Below are positions 28,731 through 37,938 of a DNA stretch of 64,000 nt, piece by piece; the stretch's first letter is position 1, and every line of letters begins with the position of its first letter. The translations under genes and the position numbers were made by a program. Origin of the DNA: an uncultured Chloroflexia bacterium (GTDB lineage Bacteria > Chloroflexota > Anaerolineae > CG2-30-64-16); assembly GCA_963810095.1 (NCBI GenBank), contig CAWEMM010000002.1, forward strand, positions 1-64,000, read 5' to 3'. Below the pieces are notes generated by a model. The model searched no databases. It was not told the DNA's origin and saw only the letters and a list, made by a program, of their open reading frames with translations.

Positions 28731-30704
28731 ATGTCCGTCAAGAAGCTGTCGGCTCTGCTCGCGGTCCTCGTGATCGCCAGCATGATGCTGACCGCCTGCC
28801 CGGCTCCGCAAGCTCAGACAGTCGAGAAGGTCGTTACCTCTGTTGTGACCGAGCAGGTCAAGGTTGTCGAGACCCAGGTCGTCGAAAAGCCGGTCGAGGT
28901 CGAGAAGGTTGTGACCAAGGAAGTGGAGAAGGTTGTCGAGAAGGCGACTGAGGATTACACCACTCCGCACCCGATCCTGAGCGACGTCCGCGTCCGCCAG
29001 GCCATCGCCTACTGCACCAACCGTCCTGATCTGATCGCTTCCGTCTATCCCTTCATCACCGATGAAGAGAAGTCCAAGCTGCTGATGGATACCTTCCTGC
29101 CCAAGACCCACTGGGCGTACAAGGGCGGGTATCAGGATTACCCGTTTGACAAGGCCAAGGGCGGCGCACTGCTCGACGAGGCCGGCTGGAAGCTCAAGGA
29201 AGGCGACACCTTCCGCACGAACGACAAGGGTGAGACGCTGGCCCTGAAGTTCACCACCACGAACGCACAGTTCCGCCAGACATGGAGCGCGGTCATGGTG
29301 CAGAACATGCAGGACTGCGGCATTCAGATGATCGCTCAGTACGTGCCGGCGTCCTGGTGGTTCGGCGACACGACGGGCCTGGCCCGCCGCGACTACGAGT
29401 TGGGCGCGTACGCCTGGGTCGGCGAGTCCGATCCGAAGGGCCGCACCCTCTATGCGTGTGACCAGATCCCGCTTCCGAGCAATAACTGGGAAGGCCAGAA
29501 CAGCATGGGTTGGTGCAACGAGACCGCCTCGAAGGCGATCATCCTGGCCAACAACACCCTTGACCGCGATGCGCGCATCACGGCATACGACACCGTCCAG
29601 AAGGAATTCGCCAAGGACATGGTGTCGCTGCCCGTGTTCCAGCGCCTCGAGGGCGAAGCCTGGAATCCCAACCTGGAGGGCATCAAGACCTCCCCGACCG
29701 AATACGCGATCGTGAGCGCGGGCGGTTGGAAGCTGGCCGACGGCGGCGACACTGCAGTCATCGGCTTCTCGCAGGAACCTGCCTCCATGTTCGACCTGGT
29801 CGAATCTGCGGCCGCGACCCGCCAGGCATACTACCTGGGCGTGTCCAACGTCAACACCCAGTTCGACTATGACTACCAGCCTGGCATCCAGGACCCGCTC
29901 AGCACGATCGAGAACGGCCTCTCCAAGAATGTGGACGTCGAGGTCAAGGCCGGCGACAAGGTCTACGATTCGAAGGGCGAGGCAGTAGAGCTGGCCAAGG
30001 GCATCAAGGTCTTCGATGCGACCGGCAACGAGGTCGAGTTCGACGGCACGACCCCGATCAAGATGAAGCAATTGACGTCCGAGTACAAGTTCAAGCCGTT
30101 CACCTGGAGCGACGGGACCAAGGGCTCGGTGGCCGACCTGCTGTTGGGCCACAAGATCGACTGCGACAAGGATTCCGGCAGCACCTCCTTCGAGGTCTGC
30201 AACCAGATCGCCGAGGTCACGCCCGGAACCGGAACTGACCTGAGCTACACGATCAAATGGCTGCCCGGCTCGCAGTACTCGCTGTACTTCCTGTCGCAGT
30301 TCCATATCTATCCCAGCTTCCAGAAACTGGCCGACGGCCGCATGCTGGCCGACGTGCCGGCGAAGGAATGGGCCACGCTGCCCGAGATCGCCGAGAGCCC
30401 GCTGAGCATGGCGCCGTTCGTTCTGACCGACTGGAAGAAGGGCGAGAGCATGACCTTCACCCGGAATGAGTACTACGAGCCCAAGCCGGCGCTGAAGACC
30501 ATCGTCATCCAGTTCTTCCCCGACAGCCAGACCGCCGTTGCGGCGCTGCTGGGCGGCGACGTGGATTACCTCGAAAAGTCGACCCTCGGGGCCGGCGCAG
30601 AACTGCAGACCGTGCTCGACGCCCAGAAGGAAGGCAAGCTCAAGGTTGACTTGATCGCCAGCCCCACCTGGGAGCACGTCGACATGAACCTGTTCACGAA
30701 GTAA
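28731..30704 (+). CDS. Peptide/nickel (family 5) ABC substrate-binding lipoprotein, circularly permuted, copy 1
   Basis: Lipobox LTAC, VEKVVT stalk, SBP_bac_5 motifs in swapped order; AGGAGG RBS. Confidence 0.9.
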   Translation: MSVKKLSALLAVLVIASMMLTACPAPQAQTVEKVVTSVVTEQVKVVETQVVEKPVEVEKVVTKEVEKVVEKATEDYTTPHPILSDVRVRQAIAYCTNRPDLIASVYPFITDEEKSKLLMDTFLPKTHWAYKGGYQDYPFDKAKGGALLDEAGWKLKEGDTFRTNDKGETLALKFTTTNAQFRQTWSAVMVQNMQDCGIQMIAQYVPASWWFGDTTGLARRDYELGAYAWVGESDPKGRTLYACDQIPLPSNNWEGQNSMGWCNETASKAIILANNTLDRDARITAYDTVQKEFAKDMVSLPVFQRLEGEAWNPNLEGIKTSPTEYAIVSAGGWKLADGGDTAVIGFSQEPASMFDLVESAAATRQAYYLGVSNVNTQFDYDYQPGIQDPLSTIENGLSKNVDVEVKAGDKVYDSKGEAVELAKGIKVFDATGNEVEFDGTTPIKMKQLTSEYKFKPFTWSDGTKGSVADLLLGHKIDCDKDSGSTSFEVCNQIAEVTPGTGTDLSYTIKWLPGSQYSLYFLSQFHIYPSFQKLADGRMLADVPAKEWATLPEIAESPLSMAPFVLTDWKKGESMTFTRNEYYEPKPALKTIVIQFFPDSQTAVAALLGGDVDYLEKSTLGAGAELQTVLDAQKEGKLKVDLIASPTWEHVDMNLFTK

Positions 30705-30883
30705 CATTCGAAGAGACCCGGTTGCTGCGTCCTCACTGTCCTGCACAGTGGCAGGGTGCTGAGGCGCAGCCCCGGGTGTGGATCGACAGTAAGCGGGCGG
30801 GCTGCACGACTTGGTCGTCGCCCGCCCGTCGTGCACTTATCCGGGGGTGGCGGCGCGCCGGCCCACCCGACCGGCCTCACCCA

Positions 30884-30950
30884 TGAGGAGCGCCTCGACC
30901 GTGAGGACTTCCTCATCGATGAGGACTGCCTCAAGAATGAGGATTGCATG
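30884..30950 (+). repeat. 18-bp tandem repeats (TGAGGA..CCTC); the last unit is the permease RBS and ATG
   Basis: tgaggagcgcctcgaccg / tgaggacttcctcatcga / tgaggactgcctcaagaa / tgaggattgcatg. Confidence 0.7.
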
Positions 30951-35668: not shown

Positions 35669-35697
35669 TTGACATCCTCTCACCGCCATGCTATTGT
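35669..35697 (+). promoter_or_regulatory. Sigma70-type promoter of peptide ABC operon 2
   Basis: TTGACA-17 nt-TATTGT with extended -10 TG. Confidence 0.6.
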
Positions 35698-35966
35698 TAC
35701 GTATCTCTGGCACAGAGGAAGCACCTCTTGCTTCTTTACCCGGAAAAGTGCCTCCGGGGCTATGACCCACGTCCGGGGGTCTTCAGCCACGATCGAACAT
35801 TGCCTTATCAAAGGAGGTGATGGCTCGACCTGACAGGAAGTAGCCCGTCTTGCGACGTCAAATTGCCCAACCTATCCAGACAAGCGAGTGGACACGCGTT
35901 ACCCGACGCGTGCCGAAGAGTTGTTCTTCCGTTTTTCATCCCACATCCATCTCTCAGGAGGAGAAA

Positions 35967-37938
35967 ATGTCTCTCAAGAAGCTGTCGGTCTTGCTAGGCG
36001 TCCTCGTGGTCGTAAGCATGCTCCTGACCGCCTGCCCCGCGCCTGCGCCCCAGGTCGTGGAGAAGGTTGTGACGCAAGTCGTCAAGGAAGAGGTCAAGGT
36101 CGTCGAGACCCAGGTCGTCGAGAAGCAGGTCGAAGTCGAGAAGGTCGTGACCAAGGAAGTCGAGAAAGTCGTCGAGAAGGCGGCTGAAGACTTCACCACC
36201 CCGCACCCCATCCTCAGCGATATCAAGGTGCGCCAAGCGATTGCCCACTGCACGCAACCGCGACGAACTGATCGCTTCGGTCTATCCCTTCGTGGACGAC
36301 GAGACCAAGGCGAAGCTCCGCATGGATTCCTGGATTCCGAAGACGAGCTGGGCCTACGGTGGGCCGTACCAGGACTACGAGTTCAGCGTGGAGAAGGGCG
36401 GCGCGTTGCTTGACGAGGCCGGCTGGAAGTTGGCCGAAGGCGACACGTTCCGCGCGAATGAGAAAGGCGAAACCCTGGCGCTGAAGTTCACGACCACCAC
36501 CGCGCAGTTCCGCCAGACGTGGGCTGCGGTGTTCGAGCAGCAGATGGCGAAGTGCGGCATCCAGATCATCCGCCAGCACGTGCCGGCTTCCTGGTGGTTC
36601 GGCGACACGACGGGCCTGGCCCGCCGCGACTTCGAACTCGGCGCATACGCCTGGGTCGGCGAGCCGGATCCCGGCGGCCGCACCCTCTACGCCTGCGACA
36701 TGATCCCGCTCCCCTCGAACAACTGGGAAGGCCAGAACAGCATGGGCTGGTGCAACAAGGCCGCCAGCGATGCCATCGTGCGCGCCAACAACACCCTGAT
36801 CAAGGACGAGCGCAAGGCCGCCTACAACACGGTGCAGGAAGAGTTCGTCAAGGACATGGTCTCCCTGCCGGTGTTCCAGCGTGTCGAGGGCGAGGCCTGG
36901 AATCCCAAGCTGACCGGCCTGAAGGTGGACCCGACCGAGTATAGCACTGCGAACATCGCCGAATGGGCCTTGGATGGTGGGGATACCGCGGTCCTGGGCA
37001 TGTCGCAGGAGCCCGCCTCCATGTACGCTCTGGTCGAGTCGGCCGCCGTGCAAGTGACGGCCTCCTTCGTCGGCGGCATTGCGCGGCCGTTCACCAAGTG
37101 GAACTACGATTACCAGCCGTTCCTGCAGGATCCCCTCAGCACGATCGAGAGCGGCCTGGCGAAGAACAACACGGTCGACGTCAAGCCCGGCGACATGGTC
37201 TACGACACCTCCGGCAAGCCTGTCAAGCTCGAGAAGGGCACGAAGGTCTTCGACGCAGAGGGCAAGGAAGTGGAGTACGACGGGTCGAGCGCGCTGCAGA
37301 TGAAGCAGTTGGTGATCACCTACAAGCTCAGGGACTACACCTGGAGCGACGGCACCAAGGGCTCTTCGGCCGATATGGAGCTGGGCTTCAAGAACGACTG
37401 CGACAAGGAGTCGGGGGCGACGTCCTTCATCTTCTGCGACGCGATCCTGGATAAGCAGTTCGCCCAGGATAAGCTGGAAGCCACCGTGACCATGGTGCCG
37501 GGTTATCAAGATCCGCTCTACTTCAACTACCCGTTCTACATCTACCCCGCCCACCAGAAGCTGGCCGACGGCCGTATGCTCAAGGACGTGCCGGCGAAGG
37601 AATGGGCGACCCTGCCCGAGATCGCCGATACGCCGTTGAGCTGGGGCCCGTTCCAGTTGGTCGAGTGGAAGAAGGGCGAGAGCATGACGTATGAGGCGAA
37701 CCAGTACGCCAACCCGGCGCCGAAGCTCAAGAAGGTCGTCATCCAGTTCTTCCCCGACACGCAGACGGCCGTGGCCGCGCTGCTGGGCGGCGATGTAGAC
37801 TGGCTCGAGAAGTCGACCCTGGGCGCGGGCGCCGAGGTGCAGACCGTCCTTGACGCCCAGAAGGAAGGCAAGGTCAAGGTCGAGCTGGGCCCGAACCCGA
37901 CCTGGGAACACATCGACATGAACCTGTTCACCAAGTAG
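35967..37938 (+). CDS. Peptide (family 5) ABC substrate-binding lipoprotein, circularly permuted, copy 2 (frameshift near 36255)
   Basis: Lipobox LTAC; colinear paralog of 28731..30704; ORFs 35850..36413 and 36241..37938 join. Confidence 0.88.

Follow-up and report, generated by a model that had tools for sequence, protein, structure and literature searches.

The 64,000-nucleotide stretch analysed here (the window; contig CAWEMM010000002.1 of an uncultured Chloroflexia bacterium) raises the question whether the solute-binding protein (SBP) of an ATP-binding cassette (ABC) importer can be built with its two halves in reverse order, and what such a protein is for. The window carries three Opp/Dpp-type ABC importer operons on the forward strand between 28.7 and 50.5 kb. 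An earlier note on the same DNA proposed that the SBPs of the first two, SBP1 and SBP2, are rearranged family-5 (PF00496, cluster C) proteins. The analysis confirms that both are true circular permutations of a family-5 SBP in which the C-terminal part comes first. As to their role, we infer that they belong to a natural lineage of permuted cluster C lipoproteins, which most likely act as the conventional tethered SBPs of Opp-type importers.

Both proteins are members of the PF00496 family, scoring 126.9 bits (SBP1) and 120.9 bits (the SBP2 open reading frame, ORF) against a cut-off of 32.4. As predicted, the Pfam scan of SBP1 yielded two stretches in swapped register. The better of these, amino acids 80-236, corresponds to positions 210-353 of the profile, which is 368 positions long, and the best stretch in the SBP2 ORF, amino acids 357-561, corresponds to positions 17-207. 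A single colinear full-length match to PF00496 was not obtained with SBP1, whereas the controls SBP3, P0184 and P0195 were colinear. The SBP3 match, amino acids 121-521 on profile positions 2-365, bears out the canonical order assigned to this third protein. The motifs quoted by the earlier note were all found in their stated order in SBP1, and in SBP2 across a change of frame; the motif GGDTAVIG, placed near 29740, starts at nucleotide 29742.

The same arrangement appears against solved structures. In a phmmer search of the PDB, SBP1 residues 560-655 aligned with residues 210-311 of 2d5w_A and SBP1 residues 83-306 with residues 322-551; the NikA structure 4oer aligned with the same swap. A profile made from 51 family members found 104 PDB sequences at E<=1e-5 (E 5.9e-58 to 2d5w). 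The register was swapped in all 60 shown of these 104 matches; these 60 solved structures have the canonical chain order, and none is colinear with the permuted family. Hidden Markov models (HMMs) were also built for the canonical C-terminal part ("C-half") and N-terminal lobe ("N-half") separately. A scan of 272 proteins gave 164 with C-N order, 25 with N-C order and 3 tandem forms. Three canonical relatives that are 33-38% identical to SBP1, P0184, P0195 and P0208, have N-C order on the two models. SBP2 is 69% identical to SBP1 over the mature part. SBP3 is too distant for a pairwise view of the swap: BLASTP aligned it with SBP1 over amino acids 1-118, the signal peptide and stalk, at 46% identity and detected no similarity beyond.

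The three relatives also locate the cut and the joint. In mid-chain they read TWEHLDFNL, a loop, and then PHxxLSDxRVRQAIA. They end in W-x-L-P (P0184, P0208) or GEWEK (P0195), and their mature chains start with VVAxGQEPD (P0184, P0195) or GLLLEQEPD (P0208). SBP1 opens after its stalk with TTPHPILSDVRVRQAIA and ends with TWEHVDMNLFTK, and its internal junction, GGWKLADGGDTAVIGFSQEP, matches the ends and mature starts of the three relatives. By this comparison only a few residues lie at the joint of the old termini, and both new termini belong to one loop. The opening of the chain would lie in the loop that connects the final N-lobe strand (TWEHxDxNL) to the lead-in to domain III (TPHPxLSDxRVRQA), and the old C-terminus (...W-x-L) would have been joined to the old N-terminus (...IG-x-x-QEP). 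In 2d5w numbering SBP1 ends at residue 311 and starts about 10 residues further on (322).

This position matters for the hinge. Cluster C SBPs, as described in the available part of PMC7312458, have a contiguous domain III set between two antiparallel hinge strands that are the sole links between the lobes. In the alignment the first crossing falls between the end and the start of the permuted chain, and a hinge with two covalent crossings is not found. The chain break would then coincide with the first crossing, and one covalent crossing, the second, would be left. A shift of the membrane tether had also been proposed, and the Pfam, PDB and HMM alignments bear it out: the tether, which in canonical SBPs leads into the N-terminal lobe, here leads into the segment equivalent to domain III. 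The new tether exit would be the hinge-proximal start of domain III rather than the N-lobe.

For the permuted chain a compact bilobed body of the usual kind is predicted. AlphaFold2, run with a 51-sequence alignment, gave a predicted local distance difference test score (pLDDT) of 95.5 and a predicted template-modelling score (pTM) of 0.90, and 556 of the 588 residues reach 90 or more. A Foldseek search with the SBP1 model returned cluster C SBPs exclusively, the best being 2d5w_A (E 4.5e-13). Each match spans 228-335 of the 588 residues with a query template-modelling score (TMq) of 0.25-0.34. Coverage of about half the chain is the expected outcome when a sequential aligner meets a permutation.

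The order is a stable character of a family. All 120 listed homologues (56-89% identical, 85-100% coverage) have C-N order. Among 150 representatives at 50% identity, 43 are full C-N, 20 partial in C-to-N order, 25 N-to-C and 3 tandem; the other 59 are single-half matches, mostly fragments. A scan of a genome collection gave 412 relatives, and the best 80 of these, from different assemblies, were taken for locus analyses. All 80 are colinear with SBP1 over residues 1-588, two being shortened by contig ends. The label is Chloroflexota in 79 of them (Anaerolineae, Caldilineales, Litorilinea, Chloroflexus, Roseiflexus, Oscillochloris); the remaining one is a metagenome-assembled genome labelled Thermodesulfobacteriota. 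Many residues are invariant over 51 aligned permuted-family sequences with identity down to 30%.

The genes around the SBP are conserved as well. The loci and the window hold 82 permuted SBP ORFs, 76 of them with enough downstream DNA to judge, and OppB and OppC genes follow in 73 of the 76 (the exceptions are L039, L067 and L073). ATPase genes come next in the 14 maps inspected (13 loci and the window). In L067 (6785-15221) and L073 (3142-10519) no permease gene stands directly after the permuted SBP gene; OppD, OppF, an SBP3-like canonical SBP and OppB come instead, and the permuted SBP may here be an orphan. In 11 loci (L012, L015, L017, L018, L024, L034, L043, L047, L048, L053 and L058) a canonical-order family-5 SBP gene stands directly after the OppF of the permuted operon, and Opp-type operons form arrays.

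What the permuted SBP does is suggested by these partners. The signal peptides of SBP1, SBP2 and SBP3 are nearly identical, and lead through a lipobox LTAC into a V/E/K/T-rich stalk about 50 residues long. In SBP1 the signal peptide with its lipobox cysteine, MSVKKLSALLAVLVIASMMLTAC, was read by eye against what we take to be the lipobox consensus. ATPases with an oligo_HPY domain and OppB/OppC-type permeases are encoded alongside, as in cluster C operons, and the two OppB proteins score 137.1 and 135.6 bits with BPD_transp_1, consistent with the OppB/DppB type. In the probable mechanism the lipidated cysteine and the stalk would anchor the SBP, the cleft would capture substrate, and the SBP would pass it on to the OppBCDF-type translocator, whose genes follow immediately.

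The permutation appears to have a single origin, in canonical relatives similar to Thermus 2D5W, and to have spread from there through Chloroflexota. Neighbour-joining distance trees (Biopython, 100 bootstraps) were made separately for each half. They include sequences with an assignable order and a half that spans 85% or more of the HMM; single-half fragments were dropped. In both trees the permuted and tandem forms make up one side of a single bipartition, recovered in 90 of 100 bootstraps for the N-half (73 sequences). Probably tandem SBP genes were fused or duplicated and the outer halves were then lost. The permuted family contains SBP-SBP fusions: P0124 (1474 residues, with an additional C-terminal Ig-like domain) is C-N-C-N, P0129 is C-C-N and the fragment P0135 is N-C-N. 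P0124 gives a single colinear PF00496 match, amino acids 418-800 on profile positions 17-359, which spans the joint between copy 1 and copy 2 and illustrates the duplication-and-trimming route. The three fusions were considered as ancestral intermediates and rejected, since they are nested within the permuted clade in both trees and are hence secondary.

The state of the genes in the window calls for a correction. The SBP2 region had been taken for one continuous reading frame; it does encode a permuted SBP, but a frameshift had been overlooked. Its ORFs are 35850-36413 and 36241-37938, and an extra base lies near 36250-36256 (tgcacGcaac, against tgcaccaac in SBP1). Relative to the operon 2 copy, OppD1/OppF1 is broken by single-base indels at about 34443, 34457 and 34700, and further split genes are OppC3 (49816-49882) and a UvrD-like helicase gene (60372-60403). 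DNA identity between operons 1 and 2 is 74% for the SBP genes and 79-92% for the OppB genes. The OppD/OppF regions (33418-35489 and 40594-42666) are 99-100% identical, and long stretches differ only by single-base indels. Such near-identity is indicative of gene conversion or of a partial duplication that happened recently. That the repeats differ by indels and not by substitutions looks more like the result of assembly errors than of decay.

Several points weigh against the preferred reading of a single lineage of ordinary importer SBPs. First, the genes broken in the window are the ATPases in operon 1 and the SBP and OppC in operon 2; if the indels are real, neither operon is complete by itself. 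Second, the NCBIfam equivalogs Opp4A, NikA, DppA, SapA and OppA all fall below cut-off with the permuted SBP, the best being Opp4A (112.5, cut-off 650); NikA scores 72.2 (cut-off 393). Third, the "xx" positions of FAWVGxxDP, which we take to be the site where OppA-type proteins carry the Asp that binds the peptide amino group, are variable in the family consensus. The substrate is probably an oligopeptide, but given the low equivalog scores and this variable site that is a guess. Fourth, the permuted bipartition was recovered in 49 of 100 bootstraps for the C-half (78 sequences), which is weak for a single origin, both trees being simple distance trees. Fifth, the two termini of SBP1 would lie close in space, but the basis for this is homology only.

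The strongest competitor concerns the permease. The cysteine-containing motifs GCYLPRY...VVGCDDY reported before are present in both OppB1 and OppB2. Against E. coli DppB the two proteins align over DppB residues 3-78 and 72-336 (E 5.4e-47), the first piece taking in transmembrane segment 1 (TM1) with the scoop region and the second running from TM2 to the end. About 55 extra residues lie between the aligned pieces, after the scoop region and before the GDFG motif ahead of TM2. The insert is absent from all four solved homologues found. The NCBIfam permease equivalogs leave OppB1 and OppB2 under cut-off (Opp4B 219-222, cut-off 450). The enlarged two-cysteine loop described in the earlier note was found in 73 of 73 permeases adjoining a permuted SBP, as an insert of 54-69 residues with exactly two cysteines, versus 4-39 residues at the same site in 21 other OppB-type genes of these loci. 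The next permease in L067 and in L073 carries 34 inserted residues, none of them cysteine. Both cysteines are invariant in 45 of 45 aligned OppB sequences, with about 3 to 20 residues between them. In the OppB1 model (pLDDT 77.9) they sit on two antiparallel strands (91-99 and 110-118), confidence being low at the tip, and a disulfide-stapled hairpin is plausible from this model. A search with the insert region (amino acids 60-140) gave 152 matches among 173 word-sharing candidates; the named taxa are all Chloroflexota, which does not imply absence elsewhere.

Did the permutation and the enlarged, putatively disulfide-stapled OppB loop evolve together? If so, the hairpin would recognise the new termini, the hinge or the tether, docking geometry would be changed, and the importers would be a mechanistically distinct subfamily. 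The presence of the insert in every OppB gene beside a permuted SBP and the invariant cysteines speak for such a partnership. So does the position of the insert, which directly follows the region corresponding to the scoop motif of E. coli DppB; according to the available part of PMC12136057, this motif enters the DppA cleft in DppBCDF. In M. tuberculosis DppABCD, as far as the accessible text of PMC10954201 goes, the SBP sits on the translocator via its hinge and N-lobe, and DppB recognises its lipidated N-terminus; moving the N-terminus to the hinge could therefore matter. Against this, the 73 co-occurrences are orthologous operons, inherited together, and not independent events. Shorter inserts with a cysteine pair occur at the same site in 4 of the 21 permeases without an adjoining permuted SBP, and 3 of the 76 permuted SBPs lack an enlarged permease as neighbour. 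The long flexible stalk, carried by canonical SBP3 too, decouples the anchor point from the docking face. Co-evolved docking is on balance unlikely. Of the earlier suggestion of a distinct importer subfamily with rewired docking, the conserved operon family stands; the rewired geometry is a reasonable idea but is not supported.

A more far-reaching version may be stated at a similarly tentative level. The permuted SBP could be a single-hinge Venus flytrap, a "cluster Cc", in which one hinge strand is freed from the N-lobe and tied to the tether. The stapled OppB hairpin could read the new hinge or terminus, and docking, opening or release could proceed unlike those of solved Opp/Dpp systems. 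The module would also be a ready-made sensor for kinases and TIR proteins.

The last point leads to a further alternative, far less probable, that the permuted module is chiefly a sensor feeding signalling proteins and not a transport component. In P0178 the module follows a Ser/Thr kinase domain, and in P0182 a TIR domain. SBPs in signalling are reportedly the subject of a review (PMC8050422). P0178, P0182 and P0220 look like receptor-type signalling proteins that use the SBP module as sensor. P0220, however, is a canonical-order relative that is also kinase-fused, so fusion is not specific to the permutation, and SBP1 and SBP2 are stand-alone lipoproteins heading OppBCDF operons whose order is kept in nearly all loci. 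An artefact or decay (misassembly, two adjacent truncated SBP genes joined into one, or a functionless pseudogene), to which the single-base frameshifts, one of them in SBP2, and the tandem placing of SBP genes in these genomes might lend colour, is hardly credible, and misassembly was rejected on conservation: SBP1 has an uninterrupted frame and a signal peptide, the order is common to the 120 homologues and to 80 loci from different assemblies, many residues are invariant, and the single-domain-like model is confident.

The reading as a permuted lineage of importer SBPs can now be set beside known systems. The permuted SBPs are a topological variant, not found described, of the known PF00496/cluster C family. 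They are homologous over both halves to canonical members, the closest solved one being 2D5W of Thermus thermophilus HB8, and the closest sequences are the canonical-order P0184, P0195 and P0208. Canonical relatives share with them WEHxDxN, PHPxLSDxRVRQA, GWCN and an Opp-type operon, and P0184 and P0195 have a stalk of the same kind. The differences are the swapped halves, the break at the first lobe crossing, the fused old termini and the tether at domain III. Operon order and oligo_HPY-type ATPases are as in E. coli DppBCDF (8Z1V-8Z1Z) and M. tuberculosis DppABCD, in the parts of PMC12136057 and PMC10954201 consulted; unlike solved DppB, OppB1 and OppB2 carry the extra predicted beta-hairpin module of about 55 residues with two invariant cysteines.

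A natural permutation of an ABC binding protein has a precedent. In the part of PMC4990184 that was available, Treponema pallidum Tp0684 (TpMglB-2) founds a proposed "Type Ic / Cluster Bc" of circularly permuted sugar-binding proteins, mostly tethered lipoproteins like the SBPs here, and its authors raise the possibility that this topology is adaptive for anchoring. According to the same part of that report, TpMglB-2 is unlike them in being a cluster B, type I fold protein without sequence relation, in which the first three N-lobe strands moved to the C-terminus and a fourth hinge crossing was gained. In the permuted SBPs half the protein moved and one crossing was lost. No cluster B (MglB) fold was found in SBP1, which matches PF00496 and cluster C structures, plus two sub-threshold chance matches. 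In the open-access full-text papers and preprints searched, TpMglB-2 was the one example of a naturally permuted ABC binding protein, and permuted family-5 proteins were not described, in line with the earlier note, which knew of no description, though one elsewhere is possible.

The features of the three operons are given in Table 1. The gene immediately before operon 1 (25474-27723, forward strand) is of the hydantoinase/oxoprolinase family and may hint at the catabolism of peptides or cyclic amides. Further upstream of the transporter array are three large multihaem cytochrome genes on the reverse strand (13092-15284, 20106-22595 and 22990-25257), with a NapC/NirT-like N-terminus and MtrC/MtrF-like domains. 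Downstream of the transporters, 54529-57825 (reverse strand) holds genes for a DAO-type FAD (flavin adenine dinucleotide) oxidoreductase, a BFD-like [2Fe-2S] protein and a Fer2_4/Pyr_redox_2 protein, a cluster which we presume to resemble opine, sarcosine or D-amino-acid oxidase systems.

Table 1. Coordinates of the importer operons of the window and of the parts of SBP1 and OppB1.
Feature	Position	Strand	Remarks
Operon 1	28731-35507	+	SBP1, OppB1, OppC1, OppD1/F1
SBP1	28731..30704	+	intact permuted lipoprotein SBP of family 5 (cluster C), 657 aa
SBP1 signal peptide	28731..28799	+	lipobox L-T-A-C at end (Cys23); from translation
SBP1 stalk	28800..28958	+	V/E/K/T-rich, ~50 residues
SBP1 C-half	28959..29735	+	corresponds to canonical domain III part and C-terminal segment (PF00496 ~210-353; 2d5w 322-551)
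SBP1 N-half	29742..30701	+	corresponds to canonical N-terminal lobe, last residues TWEHVDMNLFTK (2d5w up to 311)
OppB1 permease	30948..32156	+	402 aa; conserved start MTNYLIRR; ORF from 30756 is an upstream extension
OppB1 insertion	31161..31355	+	external TM1-TM2 loop, aa 72-136, Cys94 and Cys113
OppC1 permease	32218..33234	+	
OppD1 and OppF1 ATPase genes	33362..35507	+	merged and frame-shifted
Operon 2	35967-42669	+	SBP2, OppB2, OppC2, OppD2, OppF2
SBP2	35967..37938	+	second permuted SBP, one-base frameshift
OppB2 permease	38118..39329	+	403 aa; insertion and Cys pair as in OppB1
OppC2	39401..40417	+	frameshift near 39567-39583
OppD2 ATPase	40538..41650	+	
OppF2 ATPase	41650..42669	+	start approximate
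Operon 3		+	gene order D-F-A-B-C, includes SBP3; MFS gene between operons 2 and 3
SBP3	46514..48355	+	canonical-order family-5 SBP, internal control

Cluster C binding proteins are major and structurally well-studied receptors of ABC importers for peptides, nickel, opines and oligosaccharides. The permutation has a practical consequence for annotation, since it leaves these proteins with split or partial PF00496 matches. It also offers protein engineers a naturally validated permutation site in a cluster C scaffold for biosensor design. A large lineage that would have been opened exactly at one hinge crossing, with its anchor moved to that place, is a ready-made natural experiment; it asks how much weight the two-strand hinge and the position of the tether carry in closing, docking and release.

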